From the NCBI RefSeq assembly GCF_024502345.1, contig NZ_JALDNN010000001.1: a stretch of DNA of 64,000 nt; one strand, written 5' to 3'. Each line of letters opens with the position of its first letter. The first letter of the stretch is position 1. The stretch is from Escherichia coli (GTDB taxonomy: Bacteria; Pseudomonadota; Gammaproteobacteria; Enterobacterales; Enterobacteriaceae). This document shows positions 2,021 to 56,784 of the stretch, in pieces. The position numbers and the translations under genes are program-made. Below the pieces are notes generated by a model, which had not been told where the DNA came from, did no database searches, and saw only the letters and a program-made list of their open reading frames with translations.

Positions 2021-3251
2021 ACCCTTCGTGAGAATTTCCCATCTGTTTATCCTTTAAAAAGATAACCATCAGCGACAACCACAAAATTCCGTTGACAAGG
2101 TTGAAGAGATTAAACAGTCCGTTGCCCCCGTTCAGCCAGGCATGTTTGCTGATTTCAATACCGACGGTAAAGATCAGCATTTGCAGCATTCCCATCGCCG
2201 CAGAAACCGTACCTTTACTCATATGGCTGGCAAACAGGGTTAATCGCACCAGTCCCGCATTCGCCAGACCAATACCGAAAGCATAAATACTTAACCCGGC
2301 GGTCATCCATAAATACGCGTGCGATGAGATAACCGTTGCCGCAGCAGCGACCAACAGACCAATCATAATCGGCCAGCCGCCCATAATAATCAGCGAACGT
2401 ACGGTGCGGCGCGAGGTCAGACGCGCTAACAGCAAGTTACCCGCAATTAACGCCCCGAAAATAGGCACTTGCAGCAAACCATATTCATAGCTGCTCAACT
2501 GCTCGCCGGTAATGATGATAATCGGCGACTGAGCGATCCACGCCAGCAACGGCAGGCTAACGAATCCCAGCGCCAGCGCCCCCGCCACAAAGCGACCGTT
2601 CTTCAGCACCAGCTTATAGTCACGACCGAGTTCTTTCAGCGACAGTTTCTCGCCTATACGCGTGGCGGTTTCAGGCATGGCTCGTTGCAGACCGAAAAAG
2701 GAGATCGCTGCCAATGCGGCAAACAAGACAAACATCCCTTCCCAGGGCAGCACATGGATCCACGCCGCGCCCACCAGTGGACCAAGTAGCGGAGCAATCA
2801 GCGCCACGTTCGCCATCAGCGCGGTGATCTTGATACAAACCGCCTCTTCGAAGGATTCCTGAATTGCGGCGTATCCCACAGCGCCAATGAAACAGAGGCT
2901 TATGCCCTGCAAGAAGCGCAACAGGGTGAATTGTTCAATGTTTTGCGCCAGTAATATTGCCAGACAGGTGACAATAAACCACACCACACCCGCCAGCATC
3001 ACCGGACGGCGACCAATACGATCCGACAACGGCCCCAGGAGCCATTGTAAAAACATCCCGCCCGCCAGATACGCGGTCATCGAAGTAGGAACCCAATCAA
3101 TGCCCGCCTGATATTGTTCCACCACGGCCAACATACCGGGTTGAATCATATCGTTGCCGATATAGGTTGAAAATTCGTAAAGCACCAGACAGAGAGGGAA
3201 AAGTAACGCCTGACGTCCAAGCCTGGCACCGGAAGCTAATTTATTTTGCAT
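2019..3251 (-). CDS. mdfA: multidrug efflux MFS transporter MdfA (Cmr)
   Basis: 410-aa ORF, 12-TM MFS-like protein recognised as MdfA by sequence recall. Confidence 0.93.
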
Positions 3252-3535
3252 GCAATTTCTTCGCCAATAATAATCGCGCAGAGTTTAATAAAAGCGCAGC
3301 TAACGAGAAAGCGAATTTTGTAGCTGAAACCGCGGTTAAGCACATTCTTACATTATTGCGAGTATAGCTACGCTTTCTTTAAGTTTTATTTAACCTATGC
3401 CCGTTACAATCACCCACCGTAAACAGGCCGCTTGAGGGAAATAAGACGATGCCGCTTTACCCAGTTTAACCTGCACTTTATTCTCAACGACTTGCCTGTA
3501 TTGGCTCCCTTTTAATCACTTTGCGTCGGGAAGTT

Positions 3536-4994: not shown

Positions 4995-6197
4995 TTAAGA
5001 GAACCAGCTGCCGAACCACTGATGGAATTTCATCATCACGAAATCCCACATCCGACCAAAGAATCCGCCCTCTTCCACATTTTCCATCACGATCAGCGGA
5101 CGCTGCTCAATGGATTTACCGTTAAGCTGGAAATCAATGGTCCCGACAACCTGACCTTTTTTCAGCGGTGCGGTAAGCTGCGGTTCCGTTAACGTGTAGC
5201 TCGCCTTCAGGTTTTTCAGCTGCCCACGCGGTATGGTCACTGAGCCCGCTTCGCCTGCCCCGAGATTCACTTCGCTCTTATCACCAAACCAGACGCGCTG
5301 AGTCACAAAGGTGGCATCAGGTTTAATTGGCGTCACGGTTTCAAAGAAGCGGAAACCCCAGGTCAATAATTTCTCAGACTCATTAAAACGGATACGGTCA
5401 GTTTTCGCCCCCAGCACTACGGAGATTAAACGCATATCGCCCTGGGTAGCCGAAGCAACCAGATTATATCCCGCGCCTGCCGTGGTTCCTGTCTTCATGC
5501 CATCAACATTCAGATTGCTGCTCCACAGCAGACGGTTACGGTTAGGCTGACGAATTTTGTTGAAGGTGAACTCTTTCTCTTTATGAATGGCGTACTCTTC
5601 CGGCACATCGTGGATCAATGCTTTACCCAGCAATGCCATATCGCGCGCGGTACTGAACTGCCCCGGCGCATCCAGACCGTGCACCGTCTGGAAGGTAGTG
5701 TTGGTCAGACCCAGTTTTTTGGCATAACCATTCATCAAACCAATAAATGACTCCTGGCTCCCGGCAACGTAATCGGCCAGCGCAATACAGGCGTCATTAC
5801 CGGACTGGATAATCACACCTTTGTTCAAGTCTGCCACCGAAACCTGATCGCCCGGTTTGAGGAACATTACCGATGAACCACGCAGTGCCGGATTTCCCGT
5901 CGCCCAGGCATCTTTACCGACCGTCACCATATCGGTGAGTTTAATCTTATCGGCCTTAAGCGCCTGCCCAACCACATAGCTGGTCATGATTTTAGTCAGG
6001 CTCGCGGGATCCAGTTTCTCATCCGCGTTGCCTTCTGCCAGCACTTTACCGCTGGCGTAATCCATTAAAATCCATGCACGCGCATCCACGCTCGGCGCTT
6101 CAACGGTTTGTTCCGCCGCGAATGCCGTTGGGGCAAAAAGGAATAAAAATGCAGAACCCGCTGCAAGACCACGAAGGAGAGAGGAGTATTGCGTCAT
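4995..6197 (-). CDS. dacC: D-alanyl-D-alanine carboxypeptidase PBP6
   Basis: 400 aa from ATG at 6197 (track ORF extended by 7 codons); signal peptide, SLTK active-site motif, SGN and KTG motifs. Confidence 0.93.
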
Positions 6198-11916: not shown

Positions 11917-11931
11917 GGTAATGACTCCAAC

Positions 11932-12435
11932 TTATTGATAGTGTTTTATGTTCAGATAATGCCCGATGACTTTGTCATGCAGCTCCACCGATTTTGAGAA
12001 CGACAGCGACTTCCGTCCCAGCCGTGCCAGGTGCTGCCTCAGATTCAGGTTATGCCGCTCAATTCGCTGCGTATATCGCTTGCTGATTACGTGCAGCTTT
12101 CCCTTCAGGCGGGATTCATACAGCGGCCAGCCATCCGTCATCCATATCACCACGTCAAAGGGTGACAGCAGGCTCATAAGACGCCCCAGCGTCGCCATAG
12201 TGCGTTCACCGAATACGTGCGCAACAACCGTCTTCCGGAGCCTGTCATACGCGTAAAACAGCCAGCGCTGGCGCGATTTAGCCCCGACGTATCCCCACTG
12301 TTCGTCCATTTCCGCGCAGACGATGACGTCACTGCCCGGCTGTATGCGCGAGGTTACCGACTGCGGCCTGAGTTTTTTAAATGGCGGAAAATCGTGTTGA
12401 GGCCAACGCCCATAATGCGGGCGGTTGCCCGGCAT
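11932..12435 (-). CDS. insB: IS1 InsB (transposase catalytic part, expressed as InsAB' by -1 frameshift)
   Basis: 167-aa ORF overlapping insA in the -1 frame. Confidence 0.88.
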
Positions 12436-12629
12436 CCAACGCCATTCATGGCCATATCAATGATTTTCTGGTGCGTACCGGGTTGAGAAGCGGTGTAAGT
12501 GAACTGCAGTTGCCATGTTTTACGGCAGTGAGAGCAGAGATAGCGCTGATGTCCGGCGGTGCTTTTGCCGTTACGCACCACCCCGTCAGTAGCTGAACAG
12601 GAGGGACAGCTGATAGAAACAGAAGCCAC
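12354..12629 (-). CDS. insA: IS1 InsA (transposition inhibitor, N-terminal part of InsAB' transposase)
   Basis: 91-aa ORF with zinc-finger (CPSC...CSHC) and HTH; A6C frameshift motif near its 3' end (12371-12380 on + strand). Confidence 0.9.
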
Positions 12630-12684
12630 TGGAGCACCTCAAAAACACCATCATACACTAAATCAGTAAGTTGGCAGCATCACC

Positions 12685-28736: not shown

Positions 28737-30008
28737 GTGGTTATAGCTTCTACTTTTACCAGCGACACATTGCCTGCCGATCACAAAGCAGCTATCCGTC
28801 AGATGAAGCACGCGCTGCGGGCGCAGCTTGGCGACGTCCAGCAGATCTTTAATCAGCTAAGCGATGACATTGCCACGCGAGTGGCTGAAATCAACGCACT
28901 CAAAGCACAGGGCGATGCCGTCTGGCCGGTGCTGTCTTATGCCGATATCAAAGCAGGTCATGTTACTGCAGAGCAGCGCGAACAGATTAAACGTCGCGGT
29001 TGTGCGGTGATAAAAGGCCATTTCCCCCGCGAACAAGCGCTAGGCTGGGATCAGTCGATGCTGGACTATCTGGACCGCAACCGCTTTGACGAGGTCTACA
29101 AAGGCCCCGGCGATAATTTCTTCGGGACGCTCAGCGCTTCACGTCCCGAGATTTACCCCATCTACTGGTCGCAGGCGCAAATGCAGGCCCGCCAGAGTGA
29201 AGAAATGGCGAATGCGCAGTCGTTTCTCAATCGTCTGTGGACATTTGAAAGTGATGGAAAGCAATGGTTTAACCCGGATGTGAGCGTCATCTACCCTGAC
29301 CGTATCCGCCGCCGTCCGCCCGGAACGACCTCCAAAGGTCTTGGAGCGCATACCGACTCCGGGGCGCTGGAACGCTGGCTGCTTCCAGCGTATCAGCGCG
29401 TTTTCGCCAACGTCTTTAATGGCAATCTGGCGCAATATGATCCCTAGCATGCGGCACATCGTACGGAAGTTGAAGAGTACACGGTGGACAACACCACCAA
29501 ATGTTCCGTGTTTCGGACATTCCAGGGCTGGACAGCGCTCTCTGATATGCTGCCTGGTCAGGGGTTGCTGCACGTTGTGCCCATTCCTGAAGCCATGGCG
29601 TACGTACTGTTACGTCCGCTGCTTGATGATGTGCCGGAGGATGAACTGTGCGGCGTAGCGCCCGGAAGAGTGTTGCCGGTATCAGAGCAATGGCATCCAC
29701 TGTTAATTGAGGCGTTAACCAGCATTCCAAAACTCGAGGCCGGAGACTCCGTCTGGTGGCACTGCGACGTCATCCATTCCGTTGCCCCCGTTGAAAATCA
29801 ACAGGGTTGGGGCAACGTGATGTACATTCCTGCGGCACCGATGTGCGAGAAAAATCTTGCCTACGCGCACAAGGTGAAGGCCGCACTGGAAAAAGGCGCA
29901 TCGCCGGGCGACTTCCCGCGCGAGGACTATGAAACAAACTGGGAAGGACGCTTTACGCTTGCCGACCTCAACATTCACGGTAAGCGAGCGTTGGGCATGG
30001 ATGTTTGA
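28737..30008 (+). pseudogene. ybiU: ybiU (DUF1479 protein) with an in-frame TAG at 29445-29447
   Basis: ORFs 28737-29447 and 29484-30008 are in the same frame with no other stop between them; together they give a ~423-codon product. Confidence 0.75.
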
Positions 30009-33037: not shown

Positions 33038-34156
33038 TTACCAGGCCGGGATCATAACTAACAAAACGTATCCCACCAGCGCCGCCCACAACAGCATCGG
33101 TATTGAATAGAGATGGAAACGCCACCAGATGCGGCGATCGTTCGCCATACGTAGCGCAATCAAATTTGCCAGCGATCCTGGTAATAAACCAAAGCCCCCC
33201 ACGTTTACCGCCCATACCAGTAATAAAGACGGCGGCACATAGTTCAGCAACAATATGGTACTCGGCACGTTACTGATCACCTGCGATAAACCGATTGCCG
33301 TTAACCATAACCCGGGTTCAGATAGATGACTCACGTTACCCAACACGCCTTGCAACGCTGGAAGCTGGGTCAGTAAATGGACGTCGATAAACATCGCCAT
33401 AAACACCAGCAGCAGCGTCCAGTCCACACTGAGCACCACGCGACGTGCCAGCAGCGCAAAGCCCACCGCCACAATCACCAGTCCCCACAGCTCTTGTTTT
33501 AACTCCAGCGCCGTCAGAAAGACGATATACAGTCCCAGACAACTCCACACCAGCCGCGGTTTCCACTCCGGCGTTTGCACCCCCGTATGGTATTGCAGCG
33601 CCTTTCCAGGGAAACAACACCAGCACAGGAGCAGGAGCGTCAGCATCATTGCGCCAGCCAGCGGTGCCATTTGGGCAATAAATCCGGCAAACGAAAGACC
33701 AGAACGTCCCCAGATAAGAATATTTTGCGGGTTGCCAATTGGCGTCAGTAGCGAACCAGCGTTGACTGCCAGCGCCTCAAAAATAATCAGCCGATTAACC
33801 GGGATCTCACACAGTCTTTTTAGCGTGATAGTCAGCGGAACAACAATAAACAGCGCGACATCGTTGGTCAGAAAGGTAGAAAGCAGCGCCGCCGCCAGCA
33901 CCATAAACATCGCCAGCCGACGCTCCGTAGCAAAGCGGCGCACCATTTTGCGCCCCAGCACATCAAAATAACCGCTTAACTCCACACCTTTGGTCAGCAG
34001 CATCAGGCCGCTTAAGGTGATGATGGTGTGCCAGTCGATAGCAGCAGGCCAGGATTTCGGTGCAAAGGGCACGAAAACGCTTAATCCGATACCAACAAGA
34101 ATTAATAACTGAAAAAAACGATCGCCTTGCAGCGTGCGTAAAAAAGGCAGGCTCAT
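33038..34156 (-). CDS. ybiR: putative anion transporter YbiR (ArsB/NhaD permease superfamily)
   Basis: 372-aa polytopic membrane protein. Confidence 0.88.
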
Positions 34157-38747: not shown

Positions 38748-39395
<648 letters not shown>

Positions 39396-39434
39396 ATCCA
39401 TCGCTGATGGTGCAGAACTTTAGTACCCGATAAA

Positions 39435-39467
39435 AGCGGCTTCCTGACAGGAGGCCGTTTTGTTTTG
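39435..39467 (+). terminator. rho-independent terminator of dps
   Basis: cggcttcct...aggaggccg hairpin then ttttgtttt. Confidence 0.65.
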
Positions 39468-39610
39468 CAGCCCACCGCAACGCACTTATTTAGTGCATCC
39501 ATCTGCTATCTCCAGCTGATTAAGTAAATTTTTTGTATCCACATCATCACACAATCGTTACATAAAGATTGTTTTTTCATCAGGTTTTACGCTAAATAAT
39601 CACTGTGTTG

Positions 39611-39656
39611 AGTGCACAATTTTAGCGCACCAGATTGGTGCCCCAGAATGGTGCAT
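39611..39656. promoter_or_regulatory. NtrC (NRI) binding-site cluster upstream of glnH
   Basis: overlapping near-palindromes tgcac...gcgcaccagattggtgc...cagaatggtgca resembling TGCACC-N5-GGTGCA. Confidence 0.55.
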
Positions 39657-39728
39657 CTTCAGGGTATTGCCCTATAAATCGTGCATCACGTTTTTGCCGC
39701 ATCTCGAAAAATCAAGGAGTTGCAAAAC

Positions 39729-39744
39729 TGGCGCGATTTTTTCA
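39729..39744 (+). promoter_or_regulatory. sigma-54-type promoter (glnHp2-like), -24/-12 elements
   Basis: TGGCGCGATTTTTTCA matches TGGCAC-N5-TTGCA with GG conserved and a weak -12 (TC); 55 nt upstream of glnH ATG. Confidence 0.5.
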
Positions 39745-39783
39745 TATATGTGAATGTCACGCAGGGGATCGTCCCGTGGATAG

Positions 39784-40545
<762 letters not shown>

Positions 40546-55419: not shown

Positions 55420-56784
55420 TTACTGCGCAGCGGTAGGTTTACGCGGACGGCGGCGACGTTGTTGTTCGCCTGCCGGTTTGGCATCGCCGAGGCGGCGAGA
55501 CGGTTTTTCTGCAGGTTTCGCGCTTGCAGATTTTGCGCCACCTTCCCCACGGCGTGGTTGCTGTTGACCGCGACCACCACCTTGCCCACGACCGCCGCCG
55601 CCACGTTGCTGGCGACCGTTCTGGATCGGTTCGGCTTTGATTGACGGGTCCGGCTCATAGCCCGGAATCGCAATGCGCGGGATCTCTTTTTTCAGCAGTT
55701 TTTCGATATCACGCAGCAGTTTGTGTTCATCAACACACACCAGCGACAACGCTTCACCGGTAGCAGCCGCACGACCGGTACGCCCGATACGGTGGACATA
55801 ATCTTCAGGTACGTTTGGCAGTTCATAGTTGACGACGTGCGGCAGCTCTTCAATATCCAGGCCGCGCGCAGCGATGTCAGTTGCCACCAGTACACGAATA
55901 TCGCCCGATTTAAAATCAGCCAGCGCACGAGTACGCGCACCTTGCGATTTATTGCCGTGGATCGCCGCACTACGGATGCCATCTTTATTGAGCTGTTCAG
56001 CCAGATGGTTAGCGCCGTGTTTGGTACGGGTAAACACCAGCACCTGCTGCCAGTTCCCTTTCCCAATCATGTGCGACAGCAATTCGCGTTTGCGTTTCTT
56101 ATCGACAAAGTGAACGTGCTGGGTCACCTGATCAGACGCGGTATTGCGGCGTGCCACTTCGATTTCCAGCGGGTTGTGCAACAGTTTTTCCGCCAGGGCT
56201 TTAATATCATCAGAGAAGGTCGCGGAGAATAACAGGTTCTGGCGCTTCGCAGGTAGTTTTGTTAACACGCGACGGATATCGTGGATAAAGCCCATGTCGA
56301 GCATGCGGTCAGCTTCATCGAGGACGAGGATTTCAACCTGATCCAGCTTCACTGCATTTTGATGTTCCAGGTCCAGCAAACGTCCCGGCGTTGCCACCAG
56401 CACATCAACGCCGCCGCGCAACTTCATCATTTGTGGGTTAATGCTGACACCGCCAAACACCACCAGCGAACGAATGTTCAGGTATTTGCTGTAATCACGG
56501 ACGTTTTCGCCAATCTGTGCCGCCAGTTCACGGGTCGGGGTAAGAATGAGCGCACGTACCGGACGACGCCCTTTGGCGTGCGGCTGGCGAGTGATCAGGT
56601 GTTGCAACAGCGGCAGCGTAAAGCCCGCTGTTTTGCCGGTGCCGGTCTGGGCGCTAGCCATCAGGTCGCGGCCTTCCAGCACCGCAGGGATCGCCTGCTG
56701 CTGAATAGGGGTGGGTTCACGGTAACCCTGCTCGGCAACGGCGCGCAGGATATCAGGGCTTAAACCCAAAGAATCGAAAGACAT
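55420..56784 (-). CDS. rhlE: ATP-dependent DEAD-box RNA helicase RhlE
   Basis: 454-aa ORF; Q motif, Walker [13 protein letters not shown] box, basic RG-rich C-terminal tail. Confidence 0.94.

Follow-up and report, generated by a model that had tools for sequence, protein, structure and literature searches.

The intergenic region between dps and glnH in this Escherichia coli chromosome raises the question of whether the palindromes and the -24/-12-like element found between positions 39611 and 39744 constitute a working nitrogen-regulated promoter and, if so, whether this promoter is one that is already known. The window, i.e. the whole stretch of 64,000 nucleotides that was analysed, is about 99% identical to K-12, and it encodes, all on the plus strand, Dps (38892-39395), GlnH (39799-40545), and then GlnP, GlnQ and YbiO, an order around glnH that is the same in the K-12 annotation. 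The glnH gene, the first of glnHPQ, codes for the glutamine-binding protein, which is the same as GlnH of K-12, and the reading frames of GlnH, GlnP and GlnQ are intact. A query of 435 bases that spans the dps-glnH spacer was matched in 5,421 of 5,426 complete E. coli genomes, directly 5' of the annotated glnH; with respect to K-12, 433 of the 435 bases are identical, and the two differences are a G in place of T at 39477 and a G in place of A at 39733. On sequence grounds the window is identified as an Escherichia/Shigella-type chromosome, and the piece 39611-39744 as the dps-glnH intergenic region with the promoter glnHp2. The position between dps and glnH, the leader of about 43 nt, and the gene of a glutamine-binding protein in the first place are all those of a glnHp2 orthologue. 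We are confident that 39481-39798 represents the control region of glnHPQ and that the flagged piece is its sigma-54 half, glnHp2. This promoter of glnHPQ, which depends on NtrC, IHF and sigma-54, is already known and well studied. It offers nothing new in regulatory terms and has served as a model of IHF-assisted, enhancer-dependent transcription from 1991 onwards.

The published evidence for glnHp2 is extensive. Tandem promoters, namely glnHp1 (sigma-70/CRP) and glnHp2 (sigma-54 and phosphorylated NtrC), have been described with reference to Claverie-Martin and Magasanik 1991 (PMC1865078), and glnHp2 has been counted among the promoters at which looping requires a bend induced by IHF (PMC2709558). 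In K-12, NtrC ChIP-seq gave a 75-fold peak at glnHPQ, gSELEX placed both an RpoN holoenzyme peak and an NtrC peak in the glnH-dps spacer, and the sigma-54 ChIP-seq site OS06, CTGGCACGATTTTTTCA, falls exactly on the glnHp2 motif, 44 nt from the ATG, and is listed as "experimentally confirmed". Overexpression of sigma-54 up-regulates glnH, and EcoCyc also regards the sigma-54 promoter of glnHPQ as "confirmed". In Salmonella, glnHPQ shows 7.1-fold rpoN-dependent expression and a sigma-54 ChIP-chip signal of 16, with the site TGGCATGATTTTTTCATT. For IHF, PMC8407004 refers to footprinting and ChIP-qPCR at glnH, and its amplicon corresponds to 39648-39752 of the window, while in a synthetic-biology study (bioRxiv 10.1101/086108) glnHp2 was measured as a "weak" sigma-54 promoter. 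The earlier note had read the piece as having the architecture of nitrogen-regulated, enhancer-dependent promoters, and this reading is borne out by its orthology to K-12 glnHp2, at which binding of sigma-54, NtrC and IHF has been published. The positions of sites given here were rebuilt from secondary papers and from the mapping of published primers. In particular, the cloned fragment published as "-289 to +63 of glnHp2" (PMC1865078) maps, with its primers, to 39467-39818, which places the transcription start of glnHp2 at 39756 on the plus strand; counting back from the ATG by the 44 nt predicted from ChIP-seq leads to 39755.

The putative enhancer consists of two overlapping palindromes. NtrC site 1, CGCACCAGATTGGTGCC, occupies 39626-39642 (centre 39634) and agrees with the consensus at 12 of 14 positions, and NtrC site 2, TGCCCCAGAATGGTGCA, occupies 39639-39655 (centre 39647), agrees at 13 of 14, and shares 4 bp with site 1. 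Since the mapped primers place +1 at 39756, the two centres correspond to -122 and -109, so that two palindromes of the TGCACCAnnnTGGTGCA type are found within the interval of about 100-150 bp upstream of the start that is expected of an NtrC enhancer. The overlapping GCACC-N5-GGTGC-like palindromes described in the earlier note are indeed there: GCACC-AGATT-GGTGC at 39627-39641, which is the sole perfect GCACC-N5-GGTGC in the 64 kb, compared to 0.11 expected, and GCCCC-AGAAT-GGTGC at 39640-39654, which overlaps it with an offset of 13 bp downstream. Their distance from the promoter element, put at about 90 bp, agrees with the centres being 96 and 83 bp upstream of the sigma-54 GG. Matches to the 17-mer NtrC box consensus TGCACCAnnnTGGTGCA (PMC8743547) with up to three mismatches were counted across the window, and their total (4 compared to 3.7 expected) is not above chance. 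Three of these four, at 39613-39629, 39626-39642 and 39639-39655, are nonetheless consecutive, and the packing of three NtrC-like matches into 43 bp is above chance, with an estimated probability of roughly 1e-5. The first of the three, the weak NtrC-like 17-mer TGCACAATTTTAGCGCA (39613-39629), has 3 mismatches and low conservation, and it is probably incidental, as its sequence is not conserved beyond Escherichia. The sequence of the NtrC sites in the window is that of the K-12 orthologue, on which the ChIP-seq and gSELEX peaks fall.

The sigma-54 element of glnHp2 lies at 39729-39744 on the plus strand and reads TGGCGC-GATTT-TTTCA, compared to TGGCAC-GATTT-TTTCA in K-12. The earlier note had located it correctly and miscounted the spacer by one: the element given there as TGGCGCG-N5-TTTCA is TGGCGC-N5-TTTCA or, equivalently, TGGCGCG-N4-TTTCA. 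With respect to the consensus TGGCAC-N5-TTGCW, the GG is at 39730-39731 and the spacing is correct, while TC takes the place of the GC of the -12 box, here and in all 79 orthologues. The deviation of the -12 region from TTGCA was therefore rightly pointed out (the TTTCA is invariant in 79 species), although the -24 box, TGGCGC, deviates too, which had gone unremarked. Taken alone, the element is not above chance, with 22 matches of up to two mismatches in the window compared to 27 expected. In an E. coli sigma-54 matrix built from the intergenic ChIP-seq sites of Bonocora et al., the window version of glnHp2 ranks about 10th among 128,000 17-mers, and its score of 12.4 bits (14.8 bits for K-12) is within the range of genuine sites, yet it is reached by about ten other 17-mers of the window. 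We therefore accept the element as real because of its orthology, its conservation and the published experiments, and not on the basis of the motif match. Bonocora et al. list 50 intergenic sigma-54 sites in E. coli, and none of them except glnHp2 is missing the G of the -12 GC; restoring this G would add about 7.6 bits on the E. coli matrix. As the G of this "GC" is replaced by T, glnHp2 is intrinsically weak, and this weakness would make its expression dependent on IHF and on specifically bound NtrC. Because the TTTCA is invariant in 79 species and the site is the sole intergenic one without the -12 G, the weak -12 box appears to be a maintained design feature rather than a product of drift. 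Magasanik's group reportedly found that a T-to-G change at -14 makes glnHp2 stronger and less dependent on IHF; if +1 is at 39756, position -14 is the T at 39742, which is consistent with this change.

The third component is the IHF site AATCAAGGAGTTG (39710-39722, plus strand), a perfect match to WATCAANNNNTTR centred 13 bp upstream of the GG. A need for DNA bending, for example by IHF, had been anticipated in the earlier note, which did not locate the IHF consensus; such a bend is the published conclusion for glnHp2, and a consensus site is found between the enhancer and the promoter, at a fixed distance from the GG. Conservation was assessed in an aligned footprint of the glnH locus from 80 species of Enterobacteriaceae. 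In 79 of the 80 species the promoter reads TGGCA(C/T)G-N4-TTTCAT and lies 68-71 bp before the ATG (74 bp in one species). The alignment shows little or no variation in the GCAC at 39627-39630, the GC at 39640-39641, the GTGC at 39651-39654, the IHF core or either promoter box, whereas the spacers and the interval 39656-39705 are variable. Of 81 regions, 79 carry the IHF core A(A/T)CAA-N4-TTG, which is 13 bp away from the GG in 65 out of 65. NtrC site 1 lies 96 bp from the GG in 61 of 66 species and 94-97 bp from it in the remainder. Fixed spacings of this kind are a requirement of looping geometry and would not be expected of chance motifs. Within the otherwise variable interval between the enhancer and the IHF site there is also a conserved GTGCA pentamer (39681-39685, at about -75), which resembles an NtrC half-site.

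Taken together, these data make us strongly favor the interpretation of glnHp2 as an IHF-assisted, NtrC-activated, weak sigma-54 promoter. According to this mechanism, under nitrogen limitation phosphorylated NtrC would bind the overlapping palindromes at -122 and -109 and oligomerise there. At 39710-39722, immediately before the promoter, bound IHF would bend the DNA in such a way that the NtrC oligomer could contact sigma-54 RNA polymerase in the closed complex at TGGC(A/G)C-N5-TTTCA. ATP hydrolysis by NtrC would then open the complex, and transcription would start at about 39756, 43 nt before the ATG of glnH.

Comparison with other promoters indicates which of these features are shared and which are peculiar to glnHp2. 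The window shares with K-12 glnHp2 the locus, the NtrC palindromes, the IHF site, the TTTCA of the -12 box, the leader and GlnH, and it differs in TGGCGC in place of TGGCAC (39733) and in one base at 39477, both private to the strain. The glnAp2 promoter of E. coli and Salmonella also relies on phosphorylated NtrC, bound at about -110 to -140, that loops to a -24/-12 promoter, and it is likewise preceded by a tandem sigma-70/CRP promoter (glnAp1). However, it is a stronger promoter, TTGGCACAGATTTCGCT, which keeps the GC of the -12 box that is defective in glnHp2; its strong NtrC sites are separate (-108 and -140) whereas those of glnHp2 overlap; and it lacks an IHF site and does not need IHF, while glnHp2 possesses a promoter-proximal IHF site. 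In Klebsiella nifH/nifU and in Pseudomonas Pu a weak closed-complex promoter is similarly offset by an IHF bend between the enhancer and the promoter, but the activators are NifA and XylR, and the IHF site is located roughly midway, whereas in glnHp2 it is directly adjacent to the -24 box, the centre being 13 bp from the GG. Finally, the E. coli promoters patA (ygjG), GTGGCGCAATCCCTGCA, and xdhA, CTGGCGTAAATCTTGCC, carry TGGCG in the -24 box just like the window allele, and are bound in vivo and confirmed as promoters; unlike glnHp2, they keep the G-C of the -12 box.

An alternative arises from the upstream promoter. The degenerate CRP site of glnHp1, ttgTATCCacatcaTCACAcaa, for which a centre at -61.5 has been published (PMC1865078), is found verbatim in the window at 39533-39554 (plus strand), in a conserved block. 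As the centre of this site is at -61.5, the start of glnHp1 should be at about 39605, and an approximate sigma-70 core can be proposed at 39569-39605 on the plus strand, with the candidate -35 and -10 hexamers TTGTTT (39569-39574) and TAAATA (39593-39598). The glnHp1 blocks GATTGTTTT and GCGCTAAATA are conserved in the footprint. A scan of 39380-39830 with the sigma-70 consensus detected no strong promoter, which fits the published description of glnHp1 as one that "binds very weakly" and offers no independent support for its position. With the start at about 39605, the NtrC sites take up about +22 to +50 with respect to glnHp1, and could therefore hinder this promoter as well. Moreover, a third NtrC-type palindrome, CGCACTTATTTAGTGCA (CGCACT-TATTT-AGTGCA, 39481-39497), with 10 of 14 consensus positions, is centred at 39489, i.e. 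at -267 of glnHp2 and about -116 of glnHp1. Its GCAC-N7-GTGC recurs in 72 of 81 orthologous regions. The palindrome is separated from NtrC site 1 by 145 bp in 48 of 61 cases and by 144-147 bp in all but one, and together with the sites at -122 and -109 it brackets glnHp1. We found no description of this palindrome in the accessible literature.

It is tempting to consider the overlapping palindromes as mainly an NtrC operator of glnHp1, which would block this promoter or, possibly with the palindrome at -116, loop it out, rather than as an enhancer. The location of the inferred glnHp1 start just upstream of the palindromes agrees with such a role, as does the conserved 145-bp distance to the NtrC-type palindrome on the other side of glnHp1. 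In glnAp1, NtrC sites overlap the promoter and repress it, and a similar arrangement may, by analogy, operate here. However, an enhancer role is compatible with an additional effect on glnHp1, and both the fixed 96 bp to the GG and the fixed position of IHF are what an enhancer needs; furthermore, NtrC-dependent activation of glnHp2 has been published, whereas no NtrC repression of glnHp1 is reported in the accessible literature. We regard a predominant operator function as possible but rather doubtful, and retain the interpretation of the palindromes as the enhancer of glnHp2.

The only new point concerning glnHp2 in this sequence is the private G in the -24 box. The A>G substitution at 39733 (plus strand) affects base 5 of TGGCAC, i.e. 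position -23 with +1 at 39756. None of 5,403 complete E. coli genomes and none of 79 other species has a G at this position, and metagenome contigs show 28 cases of A and none of G. Relatives that share the exact YbiO or RlmF protein have the canonical bases at both 39477 and 39733, and even the closest assemblies, identified via the lineage-specific MntR V118M substitution, still have A at 39733 and T at 39477. It could be that the G at 39733 is a sequencing error. The other substitution, T>G at 39477, is also private to the strain (G is absent from about 5,300-5,400 complete E. coli genomes) and is located 4 nt upstream of the upstream palindrome, just 3' of the dps terminator hairpin, among bases that are not conserved between genera. 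One of these closest assemblies, L114, has 4 mismatches to the window in 14.4 kb, and in comparison with both L114 and the relative L111 there are 4 window-private differences in 14.4 kb, 2 of which fall inside the 403-bp spacer (binomial p ~0.004); in a broader panel the background amounts to 31 private sites in 25 kb (~0.1%). The clustering of private changes in the dps-glnH spacer is taken as suggestive only, as the test was post hoc.

In terms of the E. coli sigma-54 matrix, the A>G change costs 2.4 bits. Of 49 intergenic sites bound in E. coli, 7 have G at the corresponding -24 position, among them the confirmed patA and xdhA promoters, and the occupancy of the sites with G is similar (median FAT of 10 compared to 12). 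All 7 of them retain the GC of the -12 box, and the double deviation of the window allele is without precedent in the 50 intergenic sites. Considering the 2.4-bit cost, the binding of G-bearing sites elsewhere and the unprecedented combination, we predict that the substitution lowers the affinity for sigma-54 modestly, and we infer that the window allele still works like glnHp2 of K-12. The allele may be considered a natural single-base test of the importance of -24 quality when the -12 element is poor.

A more drastic consequence would be that glnHp2 is effectively dead in this strain, glnHPQ being transcribed from glnHp1 only and its nitrogen induction being lost by a decay event. The invariance of the A in all 5,403 E. 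coli genomes, in 79 species and in 28 metagenome contigs implies strong purifying selection, no bound intergenic site joins TGGCG to a -12 box other than GC, and gene decay is evident nearby, both in the IS1 insertion into pdeI and in ybiU, which has lost its start codon and acquired a nonsense codon. A matrix from 28 intergenic Salmonella sites also points in this direction, as it puts the A>G penalty at 5-8 bits; however, this figure was discarded as a zero-count artefact, because G is present in 7 of 49 E. coli ChIP-seq sites. The loss of function is also difficult to reconcile with the similar occupancy of these G-bearing sites, with a cost of just 2.4 bits that leaves the window allele outscoring 6-7 of the 49 genuine sites, and with the intact NtrC and IHF sites and intact GlnH, GlnP and GlnQ frames. 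Thus, a dead glnHp2 appears improbable, and a modestly weakened but functional promoter is preferred.

Another, speculative scenario combines the two promoters. It assumes that an NtrC loop shuts glnHp1 while the same oligomer fires glnHp2, and that the substitutions at 39477 and 39733, the only two private changes of the strain in 10 kb, represent a paired, possibly adaptive retuning of glutamine uptake and not noise; we consider it improbable as a whole. At the bottom of the scale, the notion that the motifs arose by chance in AT-rich intergenic DNA and play no regulatory role, for which one could quote the lack of enrichment of the isolated sigma-54-like element and an NtrC-like 17-mer total equal to expectation, can be practically dismissed in view of the three NtrC-like sites within 43 bp, the perfect palindrome where 0.11 is expected, the conservation of bases and spacing across 80 species, and the experimentally demonstrated protein binding at the orthologue.

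Several minor observations were made in the course of this work. Downstream of the glnHp2 start there is a conserved 5'-UTR block, CACGCAGGGGATCGTCCCGTGGAT (39758-39781, plus strand), which is near-invariant in 80 species and corresponds to CACGCAGGGGATCG(T/C)CCCGTGGAT, i.e. to +3 to +26 of the glnHp2 mRNA. It contains a GATC and a predicted GGGG/CCCC hairpin. This hairpin exhibits no covariation of its pairs and no match to Rfam, and because covariation is lacking we make no structural claim. The block may serve to stabilise the 5' end of the mRNA or to bind a protein. Near the opposite end of the spacer, the terminator hairpin of dps (39433-39468) consists of GGCTTCC-TGACA-GGAGGCC followed by a T-rich tail; the Rfam family ctRNA_p42d matched it at 26.9 bits, compared to the gathering score of 50, and we take this sub-threshold hit as a chance hairpin resemblance.

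Elsewhere in the window, TTGGCGAAGAAATTGCA at 3251-3267 (minus strand), in the ybjG-mdfA spacer region, is the sigma-54 ChIP-seq site OS07 (Bonocora et al. 2015; FAT of 10), a bound site without an assigned nearby gene, and GTGGCGCAAAATCTGCA at 55525-55541 (minus strand), near rhlE, is the top-scoring sigma-54-like 17-mer of the window (15.7 bits). A 768-bp IS1 with the InsA and InsB reading frames (11917-12684) splits pdeI (yliE), and ybiU (28743-30008) is a pseudogene, in which the ATG>ATA change at 28745 is private to the window and the W235* nonsense mutation (29446) is shared with the relatives L111 and L114. The IS1 in pdeI and the lesions in ybiU suggest a natural Escherichia/Shigella-type lineage with some gene decay. 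In addition, about 17 substitutions with respect to the closest complete E. coli genomes are clustered at 33038-33572 in ybiR, in what looks like a short recombination tract.
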